Shown: one piece after another, positions 1,177-64,000 of the stretch
Layout: each line of letters begins with the position of its first letter
How positions within the stretch are numbered: position 1 is the stretch's first letter
Origin: an uncultured Pirellulaceae bacterium
GTDB taxonomy: Bacteria; Planctomycetota; Planctomycetia; Pirellulales; Pirellulaceae
NCBI GenBank assembly: GCA_964459305.1
Contig: CAYWNA010000038.1
Span: forward strand, 5,183 to 69,182
Length of the DNA: 64,000 nt
Reading direction: 5' to 3'
Translations under genes and position numbers: made by a program
Notes under the pieces: model-generated
The model's input: only the letters and a program-made list of their open reading frames with translations
The model's database searches: none
Told to the model about the DNA's origin: nothing

Positions 1177-1575
1177 CTACGGCTTAACATTGAAGCCAAG
1201 TCGCAGCAGAACTCCCTTGACTCTTTCGCTTTGTTTGCCCTGAATCTCGATGACTTCGTCCTTGAGAGTTCCACCGGCGCCGCACGCATTCTTGAGTTTG
1301 GTTAGCAGTTCCGGCAAGTCGTTGCCTTCGATTGGCAATCCCTGAATCACCGTAACGACCTTTCCCTTCTTCCGCTTTTCGACCGAAACCCTCGCAGTCT
1401 GTTCCGCTGGCGGGATCCGCGGAGGCGGAGGTGGCGGACATTGACAGTCCGCTTCGAGTTGGCCGCAGTCGTCACAACGCGGTGGTCGGTCGAATTCAGT
1501 GCCCTCGAAGAGTCGCATGTCAGCTCCCAACAACTCAGGCAACCTTGCGTCGCATGCGTATGCAATCCGGGTCAC
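1177..1575 (-). CDS. SUI1/YciH-type translation initiation factor with an N-terminal Cys-cluster extension
   Basis: C-terminal KGKVVTVIQGL...LKNACGAGGT is the SUI1 fold signature. N-term CDDCGQLEADCQC. The 40-nt same-strand overlap with the upstream gene suggests the true start is an internal Met. Confidence 0.75.
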   Translation of the reverse strand: MTRIAYACDARLPELLGADMRLFEGTEFDRPPRCDDCGQLEADCQCPPPPPPRIPPAEQTARVSVEKRKKGKVVTVIQGLPIEGNDLPELLTKLKNACGAGGTLKDEVIEIQGKQSERVKGVLLRLGFNVKP

Positions 1576-2197
1576 TGTAAGTCAACAACAGTGCTCCGCG
1601 GGCTGCATACCTTTCGAACAGATCCGCCGTGAGTTCTTCATCGTTGGGCCAGGGAAAGGCGAAAACCACATCGAAATCTCGAACCTCCATCCCTAATTCG
1701 TCGTACGCGTGGTCTGCATGCGGATCGAGAGACAGCCCACCGTCGCACTCCGCAAAGGCTCGGTCGACCAGGTCGTCAGCTCCTTGGGAGATGAAACTGC
1801 CGTTGATGAACTCGACTGGAATACCGAAATCTTCCGCTAATTTCAGCGAGGCGTCGAACAGGTCTCGGTCGATCTCGATGCCAATAGCGTCAAACCCGAC
1901 CAACGCAGCCAGTGACGCCACCACGCCCAAACCACTGCCCCATTCGCAGAACGCGTTGCCGCAGGCCACGTCAGCCTCGGCGACGGCTCGCAGTGCATGA
2001 TACACGAAGACATAATCGCTCGGCACAAAACCGCGAAAGATGCTAGGGATATTACTGATGAAATCGCGGCCCAGGTGATCGGCTTCCCGCAGAAACTCTG
2101 CCACGTTTTGGGGCAAGTCAATCGGGTCAACGGCGAGATCGACATCAGTCAGAGGCATGTCGGCGAGTGGGGTCCGAGGAATTGGCGGATGGACCAA
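1535..2197 (-). CDS. class I SAM-dependent methyltransferase
   Basis: CEWGSGLGVVA glycine-rich SAM-binding motif I, followed by acidic motif II (GIEID). Confidence 0.7.
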   Translation of the reverse strand: MVHPPIPRTPLADMPLTDVDLAVDPIDLPQNVAEFLREADHLGRDFISNIPSIFRGFVPSDYVFVYHALRAVAEADVACGNAFCEWGSGLGVVASLAALVGFDAIGIEIDRDLFDASLKLAEDFGIPVEFINGSFISQGADDLVDRAFAECDGGLSLDPHADHAYDELGMEVRDFDVVFAFPWPNDEELTADLFERYAARGALLLTYSDPDCIRMRRKVA

Positions 2198-2844: not shown

Positions 2845-3624
2845 ATGGCACAGATGTTGTTCTACGAGAACGTCGTTCCCGTCAGCAAAGAACGGCACAA
2901 GGACCTAAGCATCGAACGCGTTGACTTCGATTTCGCGAGCAACGTCAACTCGGTTCCACTGACCGCGATTGAAATTCCGTTAGCGGCTCGCGAGTACACC
3001 ATCGTGTTCGCAGGTAGCGAGGAAGCCGTCGTTCCCGTTGTCGTCTTGGGCGTCGAAGGAACTGAGAATCAATACCTCGATGAGAACAAAGCCTGGAAAG
3101 CTGACTACATTCCAGCGTTTGTGCGGCGTTATCCGTTCGTCTTCTCGCAGGCGGAAGACGGTTCGCAGTTCATGCTGTGCATCGACGAAACCTGGGCAGG
3201 CTGCAATCGCGAAGGACGGGGGCAGCGTCTGTTCACCGACGAAGGCGAGCAGACGCCCTATCTGCAGAACATGTTGAAGTTCCTTGGTGACTATCAGACG
3301 CAGTTCGTGCGAACGCAGGCTTACTGCAAGAAACTCAAGGAACTTGAATTGCTGGAACCGATGCAAGCCCAGCTCACGCTGCCCGGCGGCGAGAAGCGGG
3401 CGCTCGCCGGCTTCCTCGGTGTGACCCGTGCCAGGATCAACGCACTTGAAGCAGAGAAGTTGGCAGAACTCGTCAAAACCAACGAACTTGAGTTGTGCTA
3501 CCTGCAAATGGCTTCGCTGAACAACCTGGGTTCGGTCGTGAATCGCTCGATGCCGAAGAAAGCATCGGAAGTTGAAGAATCGGAGCCGGTTGAAGAAGAA
3601 AAGAAGACAAGAAAAAAGAAGTAG
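2845..3624 (+). CDS. SapC-family-like protein (tentative family call), acidic/Lys-rich C-terminal tail
   Basis: 259-aa ORF with coherent codon usage. N-terminal FYENVVPVSKERHKDL...VPLTAIE recalls the SapC (PF07277) N-terminus from memory. Not verifiable here. Confidence 0.45.
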   Translation: MAQMLFYENVVPVSKERHKDLSIERVDFDFASNVNSVPLTAIEIPLAAREYTIVFAGSEEAVVPVVVLGVEGTENQYLDENKAWKADYIPAFVRRYPFVFSQAEDGSQFMLCIDETWAGCNREGRGQRLFTDEGEQTPYLQNMLKFLGDYQTQFVRTQAYCKKLKELELLEPMQAQLTLPGGEKRALAGFLGVTRARINALEAEKLAELVKTNELELCYLQMASLNNLGSVVNRSMPKKASEVEESEPVEEEKKTRKKK

Positions 3625-3820
3625 AACGGTTCCATTCTCGTCTGCAACGGAACCGGTTCCGCTCGATTTCGCCAGGGCTTCTGTTCCCAACGAGCAGAAG
3701 CCCTGCCTTCGTTTATCGGGAATCAACCCATTCTTGGCTCAAAGCGTTGCAGTTGTACACTCTCGCTGTATTCATGGTGCGAGACCGGCATCGGCGAAGG
3801 CCGTTTCTGGTTCAAGCGGT

Positions 3821-3950
3821 TATACCATCCGCGGGCAAGTCTGATCCGTAGCCGAACTCGCCAGAGTTTGGTTTTCCCCTACGTGGCCCAAAGTCTGGCG
3901 ACTTCGGCTACATGCGGAAAAGTGTCAATCCTGGCCGCGGCCGGTATAGA
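3821..3950 (+). repeat. dispersed repeat family A, copy 2 (best-preserved: TIR-like ends TATACCATCCGCGG / CCGCGGCCGGTATA)
   Basis: Near-identical to copies at 30211 and 43662. Internal imperfect 24-bp hairpin gtagccgaactcgccagagtttgg / ccaaagtctggcgacttcggctac. Confidence 0.85.
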
Positions 3951-3985: not shown

Positions 3986-4504
3986 TTACCAAAGGCCCGG
4001 TGTGACGATTGCGGTCGTTCCATCCGGCCCGCGCTGGACGCTGTAGTCGCCCATGAGGTTTGAAAAGAAAAGCGTACCGGCAGATGGGTTGCCTGGGATG
4101 AAAATCGCGCCGCTGCCTTTATTCTGATCGATCAATACCCCTTCCCCAAAGAAGACGCCCGATAAATAGGAAATCCCTCCCGGAAGCTGAACCACCGTTG
4201 CTCGCTGGTAGATGTCCATGGCGCGGCCAAGCACCGAAGCCCGATCGCCGCACACGATGTTCGTGGTCAGTCCCTGAGCCAGAGCAAATCCTTCCGAGTT
4301 TGGGGAGGCACCGCCGTTGGAACGACGAATCTGCTGGAAGGCGTTATGGGCGCGTTCAAGTTCGTGCAAGTCGTTCCTCCGCCGCGAGCGAATGAAGATC
4401 CTTCGGCGCTGATCATCGAAGGTACTTTGGGCGGCCTCAAAGGCAGCGTTGGCGTGAACGCTGCTGGTGGCATGAGCTTTAACCTCCAAGGCAAGGCTCT
4501 CCAA
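3986..4504 (-). CDS. hypothetical protein (coding strand ambiguous; overlaps a plus-strand ORF 4346..4567)
   Basis: 172-aa ORF ending ...GTTAIVTPGLW. No recognisable motif. Both strands give protein-like translations. Confidence 0.3.
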   Translation of the reverse strand: MESLALEVKAHATSSVHANAAFEAAQSTFDDQRRRIFIRSRRRNDLHELERAHNAFQQIRRSNGGASPNSEGFALAQGLTTNIVCGDRASVLGRAMDIYQRATVVQLPGGISYLSGVFFGEGVLIDQNKGSGAIFIPGNPSAGTLFFSNLMGDYSVQRGPDGTTAIVTPGLW

Positions 4505-4728
4505 GAGTCGCTCGATTTCGCCGGCATTTTCTCCCAGAACTTCAAGCAGTCCTACAAGACCTGGTAGGTCTGCCTGACAGAGAGACTGGTGTTGTTACAG
4601 CCGGGCCCAACGTCTGCGGACGTTGGGCCCGTGCTTCTTGCGCTCCTGCTGGCCTCCGCCGTTGGGGTGACTGACCTTTAGATGGCGACGAAAAGCGGCG
4701 ATAAGTCGCCGCACTCCGATGGAGTAGG

Positions 4729-9177: not shown

Positions 9178-11814
9178 TCAACGCGCGCCGCCCGGTATGG
9201 TGAAGCGAAACGTGCTGCCCTCTCCAGGCTGGGAATCTACCCAAATGCGGCCCCCGTGTCGCTCCACAATCCTCTTGCAGATCGCCAAACCGACACCGCT
9301 GCCGGCATACTCGTTTTCAGCAGCGTGCAGCCGTTCGAAGATCTCGAAGATCCGTCTTCGGTCGTTGGGATCAATCCCGATGCCGTTGTCGCGCACGCCT
9401 ATCAGCCAATCGCCGTCGACGAGTTCCGCGCTGACATAAATTTCTGGCGGATGGTCTTTGCAGTACTTGATGGCGTTCCCAATCAGGTTCTGAAACAACT
9501 GCATCAATTGCGTCGAGTCCGCCATCACCGTCGGCAGCTCGTCGTGAGTCACTCTGACGCCGCTCTGCTCGATCTCCGCCGCCAAGTTCGTCAGTGCGGC
9601 ATCCAATGCCTCCTGAGAATCCACCGCCTGGGGCGGCTTGCCGCGAGTCGTCACGCGAGCCACGGATCGCAGATCCTCGATCAGGTCTTGCATCCGCTCA
9701 ACACTCTGCTTGGCAAAGAACAGGTATTCGTCGGCTGTGCTGTCGAGTTTTCCTTCGTACTCTTGTTGGAACAGTTCGCAGTAGGTGCTGATCGCCCGCA
9801 GCGGTGCGTGCAGGTCGTGGGATACGACGGCGGTAAACTGCTCCAATTCACGATTGCTGCGTTCCAATTCGGTGGAGTATCGCTTCAGGCCCTCTTCGGC
9901 ACGCCGCTTGTCGGTCACATCCCAAAAGATCGCCTGGGTCCCGACGATGCTTCCCTGAGCGTCATGGACGGGCGTCTTGAGCACCTGCACATAGATGGTT
10001 TCATCGCCTTTCTGGTGCCCTTCGATATCTTCGAACAACTCGCCTGTCGCGATGATCCGCTGGTCATCCTCTCGATACTTGTTGGCAAGCTCTTCTGGAT
10101 ACAAATTCAGATCGGTTTTGCCTACGATCTCGTCCAGAGACATGCCGGACAACGCACAATATGCCCGATTGGCGAAAATAAACCGCCCCTCCAGATCCTT
10201 GCGCAAGATGTTCAACGGAAGGTGTTCGACCAGTGAGGAATAGAGTGCTTCGGAGTCTCTCAAATCCTGTTCGGCCTGTTTGCGTTCATTGATATCGTGC
10301 AGAAAGGCGTTGAAATAGTGCTCTTCACCGAACTTGATGTGGGTTGCGGACATCTCCACTGGAAATTCGTGGCCGTCGCGATGAAGAGCGAAGAACTCGA
10401 CGATCTTATCAAGAAAAGGACTCTCGCCCGTTACCAGGAACTGGCTCAGTCCTTCACGGAAAGCTTCAACGTGTTCGGCTGGGATGATCGTTTCGGCCAG
10501 GGGCCGCCCCAGCGCATCAGTCCGGGACCATCCGAATATCGCCTCGGCCGCAGGATTCCAGTCGATAATGAAGCCGCCCGCATCCATTCCGATGAAGGCC
10601 TCTTTGGCGGTGTCCACGATCATGCGCGTGTGCTGGACATTTCTCCGCAGTTCCGCTGTTATCGCCTGGAGCGTTTCCGTTCGCTGTTCGACCTGCTCTT
10701 CCAGTGTCAGATTCAGTCGCTTCAACTCCTCGTCGGCGCGTTTCTGATCGGTCACGTCCAAAGCCACACCGATCACGCCGACAACCGAACCGTCCCCATC
10801 GCGCAGCGGTTCGGCATGTGACCGATACACGTGTCCGGCCCGTTCCATCTCGAAGTTGACAGACTCTCCCTGACACGCGCGGCGATGGAAGGCGATGGCC
10901 GGAAAGCTCTCGTCCTCCGTGTCGAAAAACTCAAACAGAGACATGCCTACGACTTGATCGGGCTGCAGGTCGAGTCCCGCAAACCCGGCTCCCGCGGACG
11001 ATGTGTAACGCAACTCCAAATCGGTCGTCCACAAGATCGCAGGAATCTGCTCGACCATCAAACGAAGCCTTGCCTCGTTGTCGCGCAACGCTTCCTGGGC
11101 ACGCATCCTCTCGGTGACGTCCCAAAAGAAGGCTTGAACTCCGACAGTCTCTCCTTCGGCGTCTCGAACGGGCGTCTTCAGGACGTGCATGTACCGCGTT
11201 TGGCCATGCTTCACATTTTTCTCGATCGCCTCAAATGGTTCCCCCGTTTCGGCGATGCGGCGTTCGTCCTCCAGATATTTCTGCGCCAACTCCGGCGGGT
11301 TGAAGTCGCAAGGCGTCCTCCCGATGATTTCTTCCTGCTTGCAGCCGAGCAACTGGCAGAACGAGCTATTTGCATAAGTGAATCTGCCTTCGAGGTCCTT
11401 CCGTACCACGTACACCGGCAGGGTCTCGACCAGCGACTGGTACATCCGTTCCGATTCCCGTAGCTTCTCCTCCGAACGTCTTCGCGAGTCGAGATCATGC
11501 TGCCACTGCACCAGCGATGCCGTTGCCGCCCAAATGCCTGCAAACAGCAGGATTCGCGGAACCAGAGATCGAATCGCCGAGTCGCCGGGCGGCGGCGACA
11601 CAACGAACACAAGCAGCATGAGGGCCGTTGCGATGACAAGGGTGAAAAACCACCATTTCGACGCGCGCAGAGCGATCAGCACGGCAACAACGAGGGGCAT
11701 ACCGAGAGCCAAGACCAGCGGTAGCGGCAGATTCCACAACGCCGCCGCTGATGCCAAGACGGCCGCGAGCAATACCACCGCTTCACGTACGAGCTGGCTC
11801 CTGATCGCGCGCAT
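9178..11814 (-). CDS. membrane-anchored multi-PAS sensor histidine kinase
   Basis: Two N-terminal TM segments, three PAS-like blocks, H-box AVVSHDLHAPLRAI, HATPase G-boxes (GIGI, GSGVGLAIC). The tool ORF extends to 11958 with a GTG start. An internal ATG at 11814 precedes the TM region. Confidence 0.9.
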   Translation of the reverse strand: MRAIRSQLVREAVVLLAAVLASAAALWNLPLPLVLALGMPLVVAVLIALRASKWWFFTLVIATALMLLVFVVSPPPGDSAIRSLVPRILLFAGIWAATASLVQWQHDLDSRRRSEEKLRESERMYQSLVETLPVYVVRKDLEGRFTYANSSFCQLLGCKQEEIIGRTPCDFNPPELAQKYLEDERRIAETGEPFEAIEKNVKHGQTRYMHVLKTPVRDAEGETVGVQAFFWDVTERMRAQEALRDNEARLRLMVEQIPAILWTTDLELRYTSSAGAGFAGLDLQPDQVVGMSLFEFFDTEDESFPAIAFHRRACQGESVNFEMERAGHVYRSHAEPLRDGDGSVVGVIGVALDVTDQKRADEELKRLNLTLEEQVEQRTETLQAITAELRRNVQHTRMIVDTAKEAFIGMDAGGFIIDWNPAAEAIFGWSRTDALGRPLAETIIPAEHVEAFREGLSQFLVTGESPFLDKIVEFFALHRDGHEFPVEMSATHIKFGEEHYFNAFLHDINERKQAEQDLRDSEALYSSLVEHLPLNILRKDLEGRFIFANRAYCALSGMSLDEIVGKTDLNLYPEELANKYREDDQRIIATGELFEDIEGHQKGDETIYVQVLKTPVHDAQGSIVGTQAIFWDVTDKRRAEEGLKRYSTELERSNRELEQFTAVVSHDLHAPLRAISTYCELFQQEYEGKLDSTADEYLFFAKQSVERMQDLIEDLRSVARVTTRGKPPQAVDSQEALDAALTNLAAEIEQSGVRVTHDELPTVMADSTQLMQLFQNLIGNAIKYCKDHPPEIYVSAELVDGDWLIGVRDNGIGIDPNDRRRIFEIFERLHAAENEYAGSGVGLAICKRIVERHGGRIWVDSQPGEGSTFRFTIPGGAR

Positions 11815-12143
11815 ACACAGTTGCCTCGCATAAGCGTGAGACAACTCCCTGGAAAAATGCCACTCACACGTCGTAGCGGAAGTCGTGAGACCTTCCGCGA
11901 CCGAACTTTCACGAGTCCGACCACGATTATTTTGGTTGTTGGGAGCTGCCTGAAACACGCCAGACTTCGAAATGAAATCCGGACAGGCCTACCTAATCAT
12001 ACGGCATTCTATCGACGGCGACCAACGTTTTGGCGGGTGTGACAGACCAATTACCGCGCATTCTCGTCGGACTATGCGTTGTATGACGAGTTCCCTATCT
12101 TCATGTCCGCCGATGGGCTCTCACTTCAGGGAGGGATGAATTC

Positions 12144-30060: not shown

Positions 30061-30138
30061 CGTTTTGTCCCTCGGCGTTGAGTCGCCAACGATACCGCCT
30101 GCGCTCAGGCTTATTACGTTCCCGGTCGAAAATGACTC

Positions 30139-30215
30139 GTTTAACCGCGACCCGCCAGGGGAGCGCGTCCGATCGACGGCGGTTAACCAGGCGCTCCCCT
30201 GGCGGGTAGCGGTTA
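30139..30215. repeat. palindromic repeat family B, copy 1 (about 25-bp inverted arms ttaaccgcgacccgccaggggagcgc)
   Basis: Near-identical palindrome at 35711..35789. It directly abuts family A copy 3. Confidence 0.8.
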
Positions 30216-30340
30216 TACCATCCGCGGGCAAGTCTGACCCGTAGCCGAACTCGCCAGAGTTTGGCCTTCCCTACGCGGCCCAAAGTCTGGCGACTTCGGC
30301 TACATGCGGAAAAATGTCAATCCTGGCCGCGGCCGGTATG
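30211..30340 (+). repeat. dispersed repeat family A, copy 3
   Basis: gttataccatccgcgggcaagtctgacccgtagccgaactcgccagagtttgg...ccaaagtctggcgacttcggctacatgcggaaaaatgtcaatcctggccgcggccggtatg. Confidence 0.85.
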
Positions 30341-31637: not shown

Positions 31638-32789
31638 ATGCATCGCGCAAGAGGATCTTCTCGGAGGGTAGGCGCCAGTCACAGGACTGCATTTACCCTC
31701 GTGGAATTGCTGGTGGTTATCGCCATCATTGGCATTCTGGTGGCACTCTTGCTGCCGGCCATCCAATCCGCACGTGAGGCCGCCCGGCGCACCGAATGCG
31801 GCAACAATCTGAAGCAACTGGGAGTCGCACTGCACAACTACCACGACACTCACGGCACATTTCCGTCCGGACGGGGGGGCACTGGGGGAGGAGGCGCGTT
31901 CCCGGCGGAAACCAACGGCAATACGGTAAGTGCGTTTGTCGCGCTGACTCCATTTATCGAGGAGGGCGCTTTGTACGATCAGATCGCAACTGGTGGCCCC
32001 ATGGTGTCCACGGAAAACGGCAGCGGGCCAAGGACCTTCCTTCCCTTCGGCCCCAGGCCCTGGCGGACTCACTTTCCGCCCTGGAGGACCCAGATCGACG
32101 GCCTCGCGTGTCCATCTGACCCGCATAGTAAGCCGGACGCGCCGAATTCACTCGGTCGACGCAGTTATGTGACCTGCTGGGGCGACAAGTTGTACCGCAC
32201 GAACGCCCAACGAGCCCCCTACAGCCACAGTAATGACACCTTCAACGGGCGTGGCGTTTTTGGATTCCGCTCCGGCGTTTCATTTAGGGACATCATCGAT
32301 GGCACCGCCAATACACTCGCAATGAGTGAAGCTTGCATCGTCCAAGGCGACGCAGCTAGTGCGCATCGGGCGGTCAGAGGCGGATTGGCGCAGTTCAATT
32401 TTTCCAGGCCCAGTCAATGCATGAACCGTATCAACCCCAGTGACAGACGACGCATCAGGGGGTCGGTATACCACTCTAACAGGGGCCATATTTGGGCTCA
32501 GGGGCAATTTCATCATTCCGGATTCTCCACCACGGTGCCACCCAACGGCCCGAATTGCTCGCGAGGAAACCGCGGTCATCAGTGGAGTATTGCCGCTGCC
32601 CAGAGTTATCACATAGGGGGCGTCAATGCGGTCATGTGCGATGGTTCGACTCATTTTATCAACGAGAGTATCGATGCCGGCAACCAAGCCAGGACGAACA
32701 ACTTTACCGCTACAGGCAGACCGAGTCCTTATGGAGTCTGGGGCGCATTGGGTACAAGGGACGCCGGGGAGCCTCCGACGCCACTTTAG
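31638..32789 (+). CDS. DUF1559 domain protein with prepilin-type N-terminal cleavage/methylation segment
   Basis: [53 protein letters not shown]...FP. Confidence 0.9.
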
Positions 32790-35518: not shown

Positions 35519-35710
35519 GGTAATGCTTCCTTTGGCTGCAGATCCGTGGAGAAACGGGACTTGTTTTGAAGTAAACGCACAGATTTGTCTGGCCGCAGGG
35601 CCAATGCCCAAGCGGCTCTGGTGAGTAATTCGTCCGTCTGGCCCCTAATTCTATGAATTCTGGTGAAAAACGCCAACGACAGTCGGCGGATTCTTTTCTT
35701 AGACTGGCCC

Positions 35711-35789
35711 GTTTGACCGCGACCCGCCAGGGGAGCGCATCGCCAAAGCGGCGCAACGCTCGCGCTCCCCTGGCGGGTCGCGGCTAAAC
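35711..35789. repeat. palindromic repeat family B, copy 2
   Basis: gtttgaccgcgacccgccaggggagcgc ... gcgctcccctggcgggtcgcggctaaac. Confidence 0.8.
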
Positions 35790-40383: not shown

Positions 40384-40411
40384 TATGATTTCCTCCCCAT
40401 CTCTTTATGGC

Positions 40412-40497
40412 CCGGCCACTTGTTGGAGTCCAGGCTTCAGCCTGGATTCCCCAGCCTAAAGGCTGTACTCCAGCGGACATTTCAAACCGGCCGCGGC
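40412..40497 (+). repeat. dispersed repeat family D, copy 1
   Basis: ttgttggagtccaggcttcagcctg...ccccagcctaaaggctgtactccagc.gaca.t.caaaccgg shared with 60961..61054. Ends in ccggccgcgg. Confidence 0.7.
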
Positions 40498-42787: not shown

Positions 42788-43563
42788 TCAGCCTGGCCGG
42801 CCAGACAGGAATTCGGCGAGGAAATTGTGCGAGGGGTACGGGTGCCCCGTGTGCTGTGTGAACCCTTCTCCGTAGGCCACTCCGATTTCTTTCCCCCGTG
42901 CACCACTCCAACGCTCGCAACTGGCAAGATACTCGTCGATACCGTGTTGCTTGAGCAGCCAGGATCGTTGGCTGGCGTGGCAGGCGAGCATCTGTCTTTT
43001 CAGTCCAAACGTCGATGTGACGTCGACAATGAACCCCGGCTCGACGCGGTTGCCGTAGTGGTCGCTGCCTTCGACCGGGTCGGCATAGTACAGGTACGGA
43101 ATCTTGTCCAGCGGCTCGGCGGGGGTACCTTCGGCGATCGTCGCGTAGTTCGGCACCGACGCACTGAAGCATGCGTCACGCACCAGATGGCTCGTGAGTT
43201 CGTGGTCACTCATGTAGTCCACCGCGGGTGCCGTGATCACCACATCGGGGCGAACCCGCCGCAAGAACTCGGTTACACGACAGCGGGACGGGTTGTCTAG
43301 CACGATGCACAAGTCCCGAAATTCGAGGCAGTAGTAGTCGGCCTCGATCAACGCAGCCGATGCTTGTGCCTCGGTTCGCCGCAACTCCGCAATCTCGTCG
43401 GGCCCCAACTCCATACTGCCGCAATCGCCCGGAGTCATCGTGGCGATCGTGACTGACGCCCCCGCCTGTTTCAGTCGTGCCAGAGTCCCGGCGCATTGGA
43501 ACTCCACATCGTCGGGATGGGCGTGAATTGCCAGAATACGCGGCGGATTCGGATTCCCAGACA
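42788..43563 (-). CDS. PIG-L family deacetylase (LmbE/BshB-like)
   Basis: ILAIHAHPDDVEF motif. Internal Met chosen because the longer N-extension runs into repeat A copy 4. Confidence 0.8.
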
Positions 43564-43661
43564 TTACCGTTCCCAAACTGCAAGGTTTCGATTGGTGGGC
43601 CAACGCATAAGCCGGGGGGGCCATGAAGCTGACGCACCCGCCCCACGCACCGGAAAACAAA

Positions 43662-43792
43662 TTATATACGACCCGCGGCCAAGTCTGACCCGTAGCCGAA
43701 CTCGCTAGAGTTTGGTTTTCCCTGCGCTGTCCAAAGTCTGGCGACTTCGGCTACGTGCAGAAAGGTGTCAATCCTGGCTGTGGGCATTATAG
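43662..43792 (+). repeat. dispersed repeat family A, copy 4
   Basis: acccgcggccaagtctgacccgtagccgaactcgctagagtttgg...ccaaagtctggcgacttcggctacgtgcagaaaggtgtcaatcctggctgtgggcattata. Confidence 0.8.
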
Positions 43793-43810: not shown

Positions 43811-45583
43811 TCAGCGCAAGCGTGGGATTTCTTCGTTCAGGACCAAGGCCCGCACGTACTGTACCGGCGGTGAGCCAAACGACAGGATCTTGTCGTGATA
43901 GGTCTTCAGGTCGAAGTCTGCGTCCCAGGCACGTTGGATGTCGCGTCTCAGGTCGAAGTGTTCCTGAGTGCCGACGAAGTAGGTTGAGAGTTGCGTCGAG
44001 GTCAGTTGAGCGCGCACCCATTTGGCGGCCGCTTCGCGCTCTTCTTGAAACGTGTCTTCCATCATCAGCTTCATGGCCTGCTCGCGCGTCATGCCCTCGG
44101 CGTGGATCGCCTGATCGATGATCGCGTTGCCGATCCCGCGGAGGTACCATTTCAGGTTGATCAATCGCATCAGGGGATCGCCGTCGAGAAAGCCTTCGTC
44201 GATCATCATCCGTTCGGAATAGATGGCCCAGCCCTCGATAAACACACCCGACGAGAGCACGGCCCGCAACTTGCCTGGATAGCGATTCGAATGGGCCAAT
44301 TGGACGAAGTGTCCCGGCATGGCCTCGTGCATGGTCAGGTCGTGAATGGACCGCACGTTGTACTCGCGCAGGAACGACTCCACCTGCTCGCCGCTCCAGT
44401 CTTCGGGCAGCGGAGCGACGGCATAGAATGTCTTCAGCCCCACGTCCAACGCGCCCGGCGAATCGCAGTAGGCCAGCGAGACGCCGCGCTGAAACTCGGG
44501 CATGACGATGATCTCGACGGGGTCAGGCGGCAAGGTCAAGAGATCGTTTTCCCGCACAAAGGACGTGGCCATTTGCAGTGATTCCTTTGCGGTCTGGACG
44601 ATCTTGTCCGCGTCGGGTGCGTCGAGGTAGGCCCATTCCAGACTGGCGCGAACAATGGCCTGCTTGTACTCGCGCGTTGGCTCGGTGGGAAAGGTGGTGT
44701 ACGGATATTTGTCTTTATAAACTGGCTGCGAGATGCGGTACATCTCATCGCGCACGCGAATCAACTCCCGCTCGGCCCGCTCGCGCACCTGGGCACGTGT
44801 GAGCGGCGTCTTGAGGGTGAAGGCGAGCTTCTGATCGTAGAGTTCCGATCCCAAACGGAAGTCCCCGCGAGCATTTGGCAACAACTCGGATTCGAGCCAT
44901 TGCTGGTGCTCCTCTACCGCTGTTCTGGCCGTCTCCATGGCGCGTTCGAGGCGATCCCGCTGCTCCTTCGGGAGCTCGTCCAATTTGGGTTCGACCAGAT
45001 TGTCAAGAACGCTCAAAACGCCGCGATTCTGTTTGACGGCCGTTTCGGCGTGTATCTTCGGCACGCGTTTGGGGTCGAGCGTGGCCCGGATCTGACGAAA
45101 CAGGCGGGGAAACTGTTCCAGGCGATCCGCCACGTGCGCCAGACGTTTTTTCAGCGGGGCAAAATTCCGGGCCATCAAACTGTAAACCGCACCGCCGGAT
45201 AAGCCGGTATACGCCGTCGGATTCCAGGCCCATTCCTGCAGCGTCTCCAAACGCCACAACGTGCCCTCCAACTTATGCTCCAGCAGGGCATAGTCCACCT
45301 GGTTCGCACGAGACAGCCGGCCTCGGTCGATCTTGCGGAGATGCTCCAAGTATTTGCGACAGTGCTTCCGTTCGTGGGCACGCGCTTCCTCGCTCACCTC
45401 GTCCAACTGGCTGTCAAAGCGATGGTCGCCCAACGATGTCGCCGACACCGGCGACAGTGCGGGGAATTCATCCACGTAACGCGCTGCAAGCTGTTCGAAC
45501 TGCCCGTCAAGGGATGTTTCAGCGGATGTCGTGACCGGTGCTGAGATATGCGACAGGACCACTAGCAAAGGCAATGCTGACAT
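43811..45583 (-). CDS. DUF885 family protein (secreted, metallopeptidase-like HExxPGH motif)
   Basis: HEAMPGHFVQ. An internal Met gives signal peptide MSALPLLVVLSHISAPVTTSA and removes the overlap with the ThuA gene. Confidence 0.7.
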   Translation of the reverse strand: MSALPLLVVLSHISAPVTTSAETSLDGQFEQLAARYVDEFPALSPVSATSLGDHRFDSQLDEVSEEARAHERKHCRKYLEHLRKIDRGRLSRANQVDYALLEHKLEGTLWRLETLQEWAWNPTAYTGLSGGAVYSLMARNFAPLKKRLAHVADRLEQFPRLFRQIRATLDPKRVPKIHAETAVKQNRGVLSVLDNLVEPKLDELPKEQRDRLERAMETARTAVEEHQQWLESELLPNARGDFRLGSELYDQKLAFTLKTPLTRAQVRERAERELIRVRDEMYRISQPVYKDKYPYTTFPTEPTREYKQAIVRASLEWAYLDAPDADKIVQTAKESLQMATSFVRENDLLTLPPDPVEIIVMPEFQRGVSLAYCDSPGALDVGLKTFYAVAPLPEDWSGEQVESFLREYNVRSIHDLTMHEAMPGHFVQLAHSNRYPGKLRAVLSSGVFIEGWAIYSERMMIDEGFLDGDPLMRLINLKWYLRGIGNAIIDQAIHAEGMTREQAMKLMMEDTFQEEREAAAKWVRAQLTSTQLSTYFVGTQEHFDLRRDIQRAWDADFDLKTYHDKILSFGSPPVQYVRALVLNEEIPRLR

Positions 45584-45642
45584 CCTGGTTCCTTTCAAAG
45601 TTTCCAGGTGATCGAGAATATCCAGGTGCGACGAAGGACCTG

Positions 45643-46401
45643 CTATTGGCCAACAACCTTGCCGGTGGCGGCCCACTCGACGCCTCGCGCGATTAGTGTT
45701 CGGCACGCCGGATCCATGATCGCCTTGCGATCGTGCCCCAACGCATTGTGCACGCAGCGGCCCTCGCCATAGGTGCACGTGAAGACCATCGGTTCAGTCT
45801 GTTCGCTCCAATCGGAATCCGCCGTGACGAGCACCTCGATTGGCTCGTCGCCCTGCAGCTTGGCGTACAGTTCGTCGAACATTTTGAAATCCTTCATCCC
45901 TGCGGTAATGGGATGTGCCGTCTTTGTGATGTTGCACTTGAACACGCTCCGCGGGCCGTGCCCCGAAGTGCCCATCACCCAATGTCGGCCGCACATTTTG
46001 CCGAACTCTGCCCAATCGCCGTACGACGCACTTGCCAGGTGCTGAACGTAGTACCCTTTGCCGCCCTTGACAAAGTTGACAAGGTTTTCCTTGCCCAAGT
46101 CGGAGAGCATCGGCAGGCTTCTGTTGAACATGGTGAACACGATCACATCGTAGGCTTCCAGCGCCGTGGCCGATTCAAGAATGAGCGGGTCTTCGCACAC
46201 GCGGACACCAAACCGCTCAGTCGCAACCAGCGCATCACGGGTGGCCTCGGAATTCTCGCGCCAGTCATGGAACGGAGCCACGTCATCACCGGCGATCAAC
46301 AACACCTGGATCTTCGCAGGCGATTCGGCCGACTGAGCCAACGCACCCAAGAAAACGACCAGCAGACAGGCAACGGCGGACAGGTACAGAAGTTTGCGCA
46401 T
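45643..46401 (-). CDS. ThuA domain-containing protein (class I glutamine-amidotransferase-like), secreted
   Basis: Signal peptide. VLLIAGDD...DVIVF...HNALGH pattern of the ThuA family. Confidence 0.75.
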   Translation of the reverse strand: MRKLLYLSAVACLLVVFLGALAQSAESPAKIQVLLIAGDDVAPFHDWRENSEATRDALVATERFGVRVCEDPLILESATALEAYDVIVFTMFNRSLPMLSDLGKENLVNFVKGGKGYYVQHLASASYGDWAEFGKMCGRHWVMGTSGHGPRSVFKCNITKTAHPITAGMKDFKMFDELYAKLQGDEPIEVLVTADSDWSEQTEPMVFTCTYGEGRCVHNALGHDRKAIMDPACRTLIARGVEWAATGKVVGQ

Positions 46402-48019: not shown

Positions 48020-48120
48020 CCATACCATCCGCCGACAAGTCTGGCGTGTAGCCGAACTCGCCAGAGTTTGGTTTTTCCCGTGTGAAGTGACCAAAGTCTG
48101 GCGAGTGCAGCTACGGGCTT
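48020..48120 (+). repeat. dispersed repeat family A, copy 5 (3' end diverged/truncated)
   Basis: cataccatccgccgacaagtctggcgtgtagccgaactcgccagagtttggtttttcccgtgtgaagtgaccaaagtctggcgagtgcagctac. Confidence 0.7.
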
Positions 48121-48131
48121 ACAAACAGAGC

Positions 48132-49100
48132 CTAGAAACCGGGCAGCATCTGTTGGTGAGGCGGGGTGACGCGTTTCATGAATCGTTCGCGATAGCCTTC
48201 GGTCAGGTTCATCATCACTTCCAAGATCAGCAAATCGGCTCGGCTCATCACGTGCCGGGCGCTGCGGTTGCCCAGTCCGCGGACGACGTCTTCCAGCACG
48301 TGCAGGTGCAGCATCATCACCTCGGCCGCTGTCACACCGGCGGTGACCAGCAAGTCGGCCAGCACATCCATTTCCTCGCCCAAGTTGCCGGCGCCCATGA
48401 TCACGTAAGCCCGCAAGAGCTCGCGATAGTGCCGGACGAGCGGCTCGGGCAGGTCCGGGCAGACGCTGTTTTCGAGTTCGACGAGCAATCTAGAAAGCAG
48501 ACGTGATTTGGTGGCAGAGACGTTTCTTTCTTGTTCGATTTTGACTCGACCGGCGATCAACGTGCGCTGCTGATCGAGCAGCCGCGTCGCTTCTTCATGC
48601 TCAAGCTGCAATCGATGGCGATGCTCCTGCTGCAGTCTCCGGTTCTCCGCCACCAGTTGGTGCTGCTGCATGGCCCGTGCGACTTGCCAGATCAACGTGC
48701 GCGTCGTCGTGGTGTTCACACACACGTAGGCATCGGCGCCGGATTCATAGCAGAGGTCGGCCATCTGTTGTTCGCTCTGCTGGCCCAATACGATGATCGG
48801 CTGCTCGTCGCTGCTTCCCGTGCGGATGGCGTCCAGTATCTCCAGTGCATTCAGCCCCTCGCCTTCGTGGCTGATAAGCACGGCATCGAAAACCTCGTCC
48901 CTGAGTCTCGCCAATCCGCTCGCGACGCCGACGCATTCTACGAGTAGGACTTCGGACGCATTGTCAGATGCGAAAGCTTCGGCCAACCACCCGCCGGTTC
49001 GGTGCAAACCCGTGATAAACAGCACGCGCATCCGGGGCGGCATATAGCCCCAAGGCGTTGCCGATAGCTTGCTGCTAGCATCCTTGGCAGCAGAGCCCAT
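48132..49100 (-). CDS. receiver-like (pseudo-REC?) domain protein with coiled-coil and C-terminal helical domain
   Basis: MRVLFITGL...VLLVECVG...AVLISHEG has CheY-like (beta/alpha)5 periodicity, but the phospho-acceptor Asp is not obvious. Followed by a Q/R/L-rich coiled coil. Confidence 0.45.
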   Translation of the reverse strand: MGSAAKDASSKLSATPWGYMPPRMRVLFITGLHRTGGWLAEAFASDNASEVLLVECVGVASGLARLRDEVFDAVLISHEGEGLNALEILDAIRTGSSDEQPIIVLGQQSEQQMADLCYESGADAYVCVNTTTTRTLIWQVARAMQQHQLVAENRRLQQEHRHRLQLEHEEATRLLDQQRTLIAGRVKIEQERNVSATKSRLLSRLLVELENSVCPDLPEPLVRHYRELLRAYVIMGAGNLGEEMDVLADLLVTAGVTAAEVMMLHLHVLEDVVRGLGNRSARHVMSRADLLILEVMMNLTEGYRERFMKRVTPPHQQMLPGF

Positions 49101-60920: not shown

Positions 60921-60960
60921 GGTGACCGCTACTATGTTGACCGAGTTGAAAGGTGTTACG

Positions 60961-61054
60961 CCGCGGCCGGTTGTTGGAGTCCAGGCTTCAGCCTGCCCCC
61001 CCAGCCTAAAGGCTGTACTCCAGCAGACACTCCAAACCGGCGAGCCGCGGGCGT
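60961..61054 (+). repeat. dispersed repeat family D, copy 2
   Basis: ccgcggccggttgttggagtccaggcttcagcctgccccccagcctaaaggctgtactccagcagacactccaaaccggcgagccgcggg. Confidence 0.7.
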
Positions 61055-62912: not shown

Positions 62913-63851
62913 ATGTGTCGCATGAGACGCGCTGGTGGCGCATCACCAGCGACAAATCCTGCGCTGATCTCCAGACCGCCAAGAGGATTGACCTTGGTCG
63001 AGCTCATGGTCGTGCTCGCCATCATTGCCATCCTATTGGCCCTGCTGCTGCCGGCCATCCAAGCCGCTCGCGAGGCCCATCGGCGAATCAAGTGCCAGAG
63101 CAATATCCGGCAGATCGGGATCGCGCTGCACACCCATCACGACGTACACGGACGGCTGCCTGCGGGATGGGTCTCAATCGATCCTGGCGGTAACCCCGGA
63201 TGGGCGTGGAGCGCCTTGCTGCTGGAGTTTGCCGATCAACCCACATCGCCGAACATCCAATGGGCCGGGAGAGCAACAGCGGTAGCCATCGCCACGCCCC
63301 TGCCCGTGTCGGGTAGAACGCGAATCGACCACTCAAGCAACAAGGCAATCAGAGAAAGAGGAATCTCCCTATTCCTCTGTCCCTCGGATTCGTCTGACGA
63401 GCTGTTCATGTTACCCAGCGGTCCCACAGGACAGATGTTCGAGGTTGCCCGTGCCAACTACGTGGGCGTCTTTGGCACGGGAGCGATCGCAAGCAATCCG
63501 TCGGCCGGCAACGGAGTGTTTTTCCGGAATAGTGGAACTCGCTTTGGCGGCATCCTCGACGGTCTGAGTAACACGCTCATGGTGGGCGAGCGGGCTTCCC
63601 GACAGCCTTCATCCTGGGAAGGCTCCGCCACGTGGGTCGGTGCAATCCCTGGAGCCCACCGAAGTATGGCGCGCGTCGTCGGCCGTGCCGATCGAGTCCC
63701 CAACGATGTCCTGGGAGACTTCGCCGATTTTGGCAGCTGGCACCCGTTTGGCGCCAACTTCGTCATGGCGGATGGCTCGGTGAGGATGATCAGCGACGAG
63801 ATCGACCAAGCGGCATACCACGCTCTGGCCACACGCGCGGGCGGCGAATAG
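62913..63851 (+). CDS. DUF1559 domain protein with prepilin-type N-terminus (second copy in window)
   Basis: [54 protein letters not shown]-terminal ...[20 protein letters not shown] typical DUF1559 ending. Confidence 0.85.
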
Positions 63852-63902
63852 TGGAACTCCCCACTAAGGAACACGGGAAGACAACTTGGGCAAACGCCGT
63901 GG

Positions 63903-64000
63903 TAGCTACGCTCGCCAGAGCGTGGGCGGTCTAGCCGGATCCACGGTCTGGCGACTTCGGCTACATGTCAACTACGGAAGCTATCGTTCCCTCACCCCTG
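63903..64000 (+). repeat. dispersed repeat family A, copy 6 (diverged 5' half, cut by window end)
   Basis: gctacgctcgccagagcgtggg...ggtctggcgacttcggctacatg matches the family A hairpin arms. Confidence 0.55.

Follow-up and report, generated by a model that had tools for sequence, protein, structure and literature searches.

The repeat at positions 3821-3950 of the window (the whole 64-kb stretch analysed here, contig CAYWNA010000038.1 of an uncultured Pirellulaceae bacterium) is very probably a non-autonomous REPIN-type doublet (REP doublet forming a hairpin), composed of two repetitive extragenic palindromic (REP) units tagged with GTAG, set within a palindromic shell and served in trans by a REP-associated tyrosine transposase (RAYT) of the RB11751 type. 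The window comes from a metagenome population (samples SAMN10231914/13, run SRR8062346) and, in a protein search, lay nearest to MAGs (metagenome-assembled genomes) of Planctomycetota and Pirellulales and to Novipirellula (72-84% identity). The original prediction had described an element of about 130 bp resembling a miniature inverted-repeat transposable element (MITE), present six times in the window, and had suggested as further possibilities a transcribed small RNA (sRNA) family or a REP-like element. The last of these is the one that held, as the element proved to be a doublet of GTAG-tagged hairpins whose stems covary and which recur beside RAYT-like genes in other genomes. Evidence for this reading came from the structure and covariation of the small hairpins, from the spread of the unit through the phylum, from its physical linkage to an HUH-Y1 gene and from the copying of the composite within the window.

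The REP unit is 24 nt long, GTAG-CCGAANTC-GCCA-GANTTTGG, and each doublet consists of two inverted units with the pattern GTAGCCGAA[C/G]TCGCCAGA[G/C]TTTGG. In the flagged copy (copy 2, a full composite at 3821-3948, + strand), a left shell specific to this genome and holding one half of the outer inverted repeat (TATACCATCCGCGGGCAAGTCTGATCC; 3821-3847, +) is followed by a C-type unit (GTAG plus CCGAACTC, a GCCA loop and GAGTTTGG; 3848-3871, +), a spacer of 16 nt without strand that forms the loop of the long hairpin (3872-3887), a G-type unit that makes up a heterodimer with the C-type unit (GTAGCCGAAGTCGCCAGACTTTGG; 3888-3911, -) and a right shell with the outer inverted repeat at its end (ATGCGGAAAAGTGTCAATCCTGGCCGCGGCCGGTATA; 3912-3948, +). 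In every unit of the window, each arm was found to be self-complementary, with an 8-bp stem, a 4-nt loop and an unpaired GTAG directly 5' of the stem. A GTAG-tagged REP is canonically built in this way, and the pair is a REP doublet. The imperfect 24-bp hairpin of the original prediction does fold, but its arms are two separate 8-bp GTAG hairpins. The unit on the + strand carries C10:G19 and that on the - strand G10:C19, so that each unit compensates internally, which explains why the long hairpin has two "conserved mismatches".

Folding as single-stranded DNA (ssDNA) gave the same picture. The GTAG strand of a single unit formed the 8-bp hairpin with GTAG left free at -5.3 kcal/mol, compared with only -2.7 kcal/mol for the complementary strand, in which the G-T pair turns into C-A. 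The doublet alone reached -21.8 kcal/mol (z = -7.2) and thus folds as a REPIN does, and the whole element folded as one long hairpin on either strand (z = -5.9 and -6.2). The loop of this long hairpin had been thought to vary freely between copies; the loops of the shell-bearing copies in fact resemble each other (TTTTCCCT.CG.GG-like).

Covariation supports the small 8-bp hairpins. The unit pattern was scanned against 185,579 species genomes and was recovered in at least 99 loci, belonging to Pirellulaceae, Roseimaritima, Rhodopirellula, Fuerstiella, other Planctomycetaceae, Lacipirellulaceae and a metagenome-assembled genome (MAG) labelled Verrucomicrobia. As GTAG served as pattern and anchor in this wider set, its presence there is no independent observation. 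Among the matches listed, 244 units had no more than three mismatches, and the unconstrained pair 10:19 was paired in 242 of them (C-G 108, G-C 86, T-A 44, T-G 3 and A-T 1, with two non-pairs). Neighbouring units, again among the matches listed, formed 78 convergent doublets with GTAG outermost and a modal spacer of 16-19 nt, 33 direct pairs and 3 divergent pairs; singles and tandem arrays were also found. About three-quarters of the doublets were heterodimeric at pair 10:19, a value to be read as a proportion only, as the count under-reported matches. When 63 distinct units were picked by the invariant tag and loop anchors only, 90.9% of stem cells were paired and all six free pairs changed on both sides, with a covariation score of 0.492 against 0.184 in shuffles (none of 500 reached 0.492) and no more than 0.184 for slid pairs. 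A G-T combination at pair 7:22 was seen in 21 of the 63 units. The covariation check proposed with the prediction was therefore positive for the small hairpins, and conservation across several planctomycete orders was unusually high for the GTAG, loop and inner stem (TCGCCAGA).

Some loci also contained units repeated head to tail every 39 or 28 nt, as well as arrays of composites of about 147-174 nt, each with a unit or a doublet (L028, 150-290; L069, 4588-4730; L058, 2765-3260; L187, 3095-3610). The L187 array lies directly downstream of an RB11751 orthologue.

The link to a transposase was provided by Rhodopirellula baltica, for which PMC3733652 (Di Nocera et al. 2013) catalogues the GTAG REP families GTAG-20, -21 and -22, while its supplement includes the rba11751 sequence within an alignment of RAYTs and TIRYTs. 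Examination of 85 RB11751-like loci for perfect hairpins tagged with GTAG showed that such a hairpin lay no more than 300 bp from the gene in 27 of the 28 loci with at least 54% identity and on both sides of the gene in 21 of 26, at a density of 7.9 per kb near the gene and 0.5 per kb further out. In L104, L105 and L106, the RB11751-like gene is bracketed by units of the window's own family in the classic REPtron layout, and in L119 exactly the C-type and G-type units of the window surround the gene, with one doublet upstream and two downstream. The stem sequences of the flanking REPs drift as the RB11751-like protein diverges. At these loci, the RAYT sense strand carried no fixed unit type, the assignment varying by lineage. 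In Rhodopirellula sp. P2, the RB11751 orthologue is flanked by GTAGCCGGATTCGCCAGAATTCGG doublets, which translate to SRIRQEF and RILANPA, peptides listed for GTAG-21 in the supplementary part of PMC3733652. On the basis of these encoded peptides, and with a GTAG-21 consensus derived from the supplementary peptides and the sister strain, the window unit appears to belong to the R. baltica REP family GTAG-21.

Two further features were observed at such loci. The GTAG tags in L119 (about 2847-2850), L104 (4579-4582) and L106 (about 4567-4570) supply, with their TAG, the stop codon for the gene upstream of them, and in L104 and L106 that gene is the RayT gene itself. In the cultured Roseimaritima multifibrata (CP036262; L103, 3840-3975 and 4610-4675), the RB11751-like gene is flanked by a variant REP with another stem and loop (GTAGTGGATCTTGTTAAAGATCC), a related form of which (GTAGCCGATCTTGTTAAAGATTGG) was found in L043.

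The RB11751-like family itself appears, from its motifs and a predicted structure, to be a divergent putative RAYT of the HUH-Y1 type. Its 863 relatives, which share about 60% identity throughout Pirellulales, Planctomycetaceae and Gemmataceae, include some that carry the JGI name "REP element-mobilizing transposase RayT". In 26 sequences, the motifs MPDH[IMF]H and Y[IV]ARNPER were conserved (consensus MPDHIH and YIARNPER), with H47, H49 and Y108 (numbering of the first sequence) invariant. A profile search matched the sequence of 4ER8 at E = 0.025 with an identity of only about 15%, and both motifs aligned with the HMH and YIYINP of that protein. The AlphaFold model (pLDDT 91.7) had as its best match in the PDB 4ER8, the E. 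coli TnpA_REP bound to a REP hairpin (E = 3.9e-5, TM 0.59), followed by the TnpA proteins of IS608, ISDra2 and IS200.

Several points nevertheless weigh against the proposed RAYT-served doublet. The RB11751-like proteins miss the Pfam Y1_Tnp (PF01797) threshold of 23 bits, with scores of 11-17 bits. No RAYT gene was found in the 64-kb window by regex or tblastn, so the partner in this genome is proposed from other genomes. Empty sites were sought at DUF885 orthologues (82-84% identical) in relatives, and none was found; synteny downstream of these orthologues is not conserved, so they gave no information on insertion boundaries or target site. RAYT biology does not account for the shell, which has an inverted repeat of its own and possible TA ends. 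Finally, to our knowledge, RAYT-driven movement of a REP doublet has never been reconstituted in vivo in any system.

A different type of RAYT was encountered when the window and the 99 listed loci were searched for such genes. The only one found, in a Rhodopirellula MAG (L043, 185-739, -), is E. coli-like (42% identical to E. coli RayT) and passes the Pfam Y1_Tnp threshold with 33.7 bits. It is surrounded by a different GTAG REP (GTAGGGTGGGTCAAGGA...GACCCACC; GTAGGGTGGGTC...) in repeats at about 95-190 and 752-840, and was rejected as the partner. Planctomycetes thus carry at least two separate RAYT/REP systems.

Within the window, the limits of the repeat were refined by repeat finding, a six-way alignment and a profile built from four copies. 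The family was recovered at all six predicted places with slightly altered coordinates, although not as six complete elements: four copies are full composites of about 128 bp, one (copy 5) is without its right shell and one (copy 6) consists of the core only. The full copies matched the profile at E values of about 1e-38 to 1e-43 over 128-131 nt and were 76-95% identical in pairs, copies 2 and 3 sharing 94.5%. Outside these two copies, ungapped identity fell to 17/60 and 14/60, which is background, except for six common bases (AGCGGT) on the left side. Since all four full copies contain the complete shell, with only background identity beyond it, the composite of shell, doublet and spacer is the unit that was copied, by whatever route. 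The 24-nt arm pattern had 10 matches in the window and none in any of 100 window shuffles; with an eleventh unit carrying a 1-nt insertion, the window holds 11 REP units.

All copies fall between genes, as had been predicted, judged by a crude GC3-based caller with several genes confirmed by Pfam. Copy 1, a full composite and the most diverged (2246-2376, +; units 2273-2296, +, and 2314-2338, -, the latter with the 1-nt insertion), is located between divergent genes at 1535-2197 (-) and 2845-3624 (SapC, +). Copy 2 lies between convergent genes, SapC (+) and 3986-4504 (-). Near it, about 50 nt past the SapC stop codon, a separate hairpin with a 14-bp stem (CAGGGCTTCTGTTC...GAGCAGAAGCCCTG; 3673-3705) is the sole terminator-like site. 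Copies 3-5 are situated between co-directional genes on the - strand. Copy 3 (30214-30340, +; units 30241-30264, +, and 30280-30303, -) is a full composite, with another palindrome (30145-30212) adjoining its left end. Copy 4, also a full composite (43665-43791, +; units 43692-43715, +, and 43731-43754, -), is found about 20 nt past the stop of a DUF885 gene (43811-45778, -) and upstream of a PIG-L gene (42788-43660, -). Copy 5 (48021-48114, +; units 48048-48071, +, and 48091-48114, -, the latter with two mismatches) retains the left shell and the doublet, differs on the right side and lies 18 nt past the stop of a gene at 48132-49100 (-); it was also found in other samples of the same population (L100, L101). 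Copy 6 (63902-63964, +), located 51 nt past the stop of a DUF1559 gene on the + strand (62913-63851), is a doublet with diverged arms and without shell. Its first unit (63902-63925, +) has the fully paired stem of a different subfamily (CTACGCTC/GAGCGTGG) and its second (63941-63964, -) is a hybrid.

The shell is palindromic, about 65 nt in all, and surrounds the doublet, with which it is copied as a unit of about 128 bp. Such a structure could also be a classical MITE, derived from an IS630/Tc1-mariner or other DDE transposon and moved via 14-bp terminal inverted repeats (TIRs) with duplication of TA. The sharp boundaries of the unit of about 128 bp common to four copies fit that origin, as does the outer inverted repeat TATACCATCCGCGG / CCGCGGCCGGTATA, which in copies 2 and 3 agrees at 12 of its 14 positions and has TATA at start and end. 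The outer ends are, however, the least conserved part of the element: those of copies 1 and 4 are degenerate, copy 5 lacks the right one and copy 6 lacks both. The predicted TIR of about 14 bp bounded by TA therefore holds for copies 2 and 3, but its TA ends are inconsistent: copy 3 ends ...GGTAT|G, copy 1 is without TA on either side, and TA where present cannot be distinguished from the palindrome's own TATA ends. Likewise, the conserved tail that had been described is recognisable in four copies but exact in only two.

Evidence from other genomes also argued against a classical MITE. The 130-bp profile matched them only at positions of about 27-95, which correspond to the doublet, and the shell was not found in any of about 190 related loci, so that what this genome has in common with the others is the doublet and not the shell. 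Within the 64-kb window, no further occurrence of the ends bounding a larger element was detected, nor a transposase-bearing parent, and the transposase with the same TIRs that the prediction had proposed to look for was not found there. The conserved core instead flanks an HUH-Y1 gene. The element is thus MITE-like in being a small non-autonomous repeat with inverted ends, but with a shell private to this genome and inconsistent TA ends it is very unlikely to be of the IS630/Tc1 type. Shells of a different kind were seen in Fuerstiella MAGs, in which doublet copies (L060, about 3998-4102; L042, about 3522-3640; L032, about 1697-1794) have their own conserved flanks (ttagtgcgtggtcaagtctaagaac...), unlike the window shell except for a short CAAGTCT. 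Shells specific to a lineage have thus apparently arisen more than once.

Another explanation was that the element is primarily an RNA, either an sRNA family or a 3'-untranslated region (3' UTR) hairpin that stabilises or attenuates upstream mRNAs and is kept for that function. Its fold is very stable (z of about -6), the G-T pairs of the stem, at the frequency given above, would be tolerated in RNA, and copies 2, 4, 5 and 6 lie 18-75 nt past stop codons, a position typical of REPs. In addition, PMC3733652 makes the case that many GTAG REPs are transcribed. However, Rfam 15 gave no match at gathering score anywhere in the 64-kb window and no credible match even at E = 10, those over the element being at chance level (E > 5). 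The element contains no promoter-like site and no T-run, so that neither strand offers the GC-rich hairpin with trailing T-run of an intrinsic terminator. One strand folds as well as the other, and since each doublet places one unit on each strand, any transcript would hold one G-U hairpin and one weakened C-A hairpin. Copy 1 lies between divergent gene starts, and the same polarity is seen downstream of genes on either strand. The hairpins that flank the RAYT-like gene would also be left unexplained. A dedicated sRNA family was thus not borne out, and an RNA function as the primary reason for the element has a slim chance of being correct. A co-opted role in 3' UTRs is possible, as several copies sit 18-75 nt after stop codons, but if the element influences mRNA 3' ends or DNA topology at all, this would be a secondary effect.

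The copies might alternatively be host sites for chromosome architecture, bound by gyrase, IHF or another nucleoid protein in the manner proposed for the bacterial interspersed mosaic elements (BIMEs) of E. coli. The conservation of tag, loop and inner stem over several orders and the high density of about one copy per 10 kb would be consistent with such a role. Against this, the content of the copies and their shells vary between lineages, tandem arrays and truncated copies resemble the products of a replicative process, and it is the RAYT-like gene to which the hairpins are tightly linked. Architecture as the origin of the family is therefore considered highly improbable.

The original prediction had also remarked that all copies share one orientation regardless of the direction of neighbouring genes. 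This was confirmed, the C-type unit being on the + strand and the G-type unit on the - strand in six of six copies, but its supposed unexpectedness is weak (two-sided binomial p = 0.031) and was not reproduced in other genomes. As the same polarity occurs between divergent genes (copy 1), between convergent genes (copy 2), among co-directional - strand genes (copies 3-5) and after a + strand gene (copy 6), it is not set by local transcription in the window. The GC skew of the window is weak and gives no clear replication direction. In other genomes, where genes were again called by the crude GC3-based method, polarity did not significantly follow the strand of the flanking gene in co-directional contexts (15 vs 7, p = 0.13), the majority coding strand (23/56) or the sign of the GC skew (23/56), and pairs of doublets a few kb apart on the same contig were concordant in 8 cases and discordant in 6. 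An apparent bias of 18 vs 6 was discarded because it was inflated by RAYT-flanking loci, which are not independent. The polarity bias in the window is therefore unproven.

For the RAYT-served doublet, the following mechanism is proposed by analogy with TnpA_REP and the IS200/IS605 family (PMC6006769, PMC3337134). An RB11751-type RAYT gene, flanked by the same hairpins, would be located elsewhere in the chromosome. Each unit would fold into its small hairpin when the DNA is single-stranded, and the RAYT would recognise this hairpin together with the unpaired 5' GTAG, its tyrosine then cleaving and rejoining the DNA. Doublets would in this way be generated, copied and spread in trans into intergenic DNA. 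The difference between C:G and G:C units interrupts the long palindrome, and such an interruption in heterodimers may, as suggested in PMC3733652, protect against hairpin-processing enzymes.

A broader version can be put forward only tentatively, and we regard it as rather unlikely in full. It supposes an ancient, vertically inherited pairing of RB11751-type RAYTs with GTAG-...TCGCCAGA... hairpins over Pirellulales, Planctomycetales and Gemmatales. If true, this RAYT/REP partnership would reach back much further than the REPIN-RAYT pairs known from earlier studies, which are at genus level, the C:G and G:C units of the heterodimer would be functional left and right ends, and the shells (TATACC...GGTATA in the window, and those of Fuerstiella) would mark successive REPIN generations. 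The six-of-six polarity would then reflect strand-specific insertion by an ssDNA transposase into the lagging-strand template. In more practical terms, the repeat should not be annotated as a MITE, an sRNA or a terminator. Its class is already described and it is largely ordinary, but an uncultured Pirellulales-like genome is now tied to the GTAG-21/RB11751 system of R. baltica. As both the REP core and a divergent RAYT clade missed by Pfam are conserved over much of the phylum, Planctomycetota should be useful for the study of REPIN-RAYT co-evolution. The shell-bearing composite further indicates that the copied unit can outgrow the REP doublet.

Other repeats were also present in the window. 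A second, unrelated one of about 90 nt occurs at 40405-40496 and 60956-61045 (88-93% identical), with two small hairpins (CCAGGCTTCAGCCTGG, CAGCCTAAAGGCTG) inside GGAGT...ACTCC and an end in ...CAAACCGGC; it resembles a further REP-like doublet whose tag is not GTAG. A long palindrome, CCGCGACCCGCCAGGGGAGCGC...GCGCTCCCCTGGCGGGT(A/C)GCGG, was found twice (30133-30212 and 35705-35783), the first occurrence being the one that adjoins the left end of copy 3. Two coding repeats were each about 70% identical. The first, 31691-31855 (ORF 31638-32789) against 62987-63151 (in the DUF1559 gene next to copy 6), may reflect paralogues, and the second, 9893-9989 against 11093-11189 inside an ORF of 926 aa (9178-11958), may be an internal domain repeat.

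Comparison with known systems placed the window family closest to GTAG-21/RB11751 of R. baltica, as represented by the supplementary peptides of PMC3733652 and the sister strain. They share the 5' GTAG, a stem of 8 bp and the GCCA(A) loop, their cores are nearly the same (GTAGCCGGATTCGCCAGAATTCGG in GTAG-21, GTAGCCGAANTCGCCAGANTTTGG in the window), and both form inverted dimers and flank an RB11751-type gene, the window family doing so in other genomes. Compared with the GTAG-21 consensus derived from these, the window units differ at 2-4 positions (A8, T22, which gives the G-T pair, and the variable 10:19 pair), are C/G heterodimers with a 16-nt spacer and have a shell that was not seen in Rhodopirellula. 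The unpaired GTAG, a stem within 5-13 bp with a small loop and the dispersed inverted dimers are those of the GTAG-tagged REP superfamily (Di Nocera et al. 2013).

The DDE insertion sequence MITEs of the IS630/Tc1 type share with the element a size of about 130 bp, TIRs, an intergenic location, multiple copies and a lack of coding capacity, but the conserved and functionally linked part of the window element is the internal pair of GTAG hairpins and not the termini. BIME dimers of E. coli are built from two unit types (Y and Z REPs), as are the window doublets. The E. coli REP/BIME system with TnpA_REP (4ER8) also provides the best structural match and has GTAG 5' of a short hairpin, although the WQ motif of typical RAYTs is replaced in the RB11751-like proteins. 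Another described REP dimer lies inside a longer conserved palindrome with ends TATA..., the same architecture as the window shell, in an unrelated organism and with unrelated sequences. In the REPINs and RAYTs of Pseudomonas fluorescens SBW25 (Bertels & Rainey 2011, PMC3116915; PMC3337134), two inverted REPs and a spacer likewise form a long hairpin, the doublet replicates as a unit, these REPs also flank the cognate RAYT, and singles, doublets and arrays coexist. The planctomycete system differs in that RB11751 represents another, highly divergent RAYT clade that falls below the Pfam threshold, in that the REP core is conserved over whole orders and not within a genus, and in the extra outer palindromic shell.

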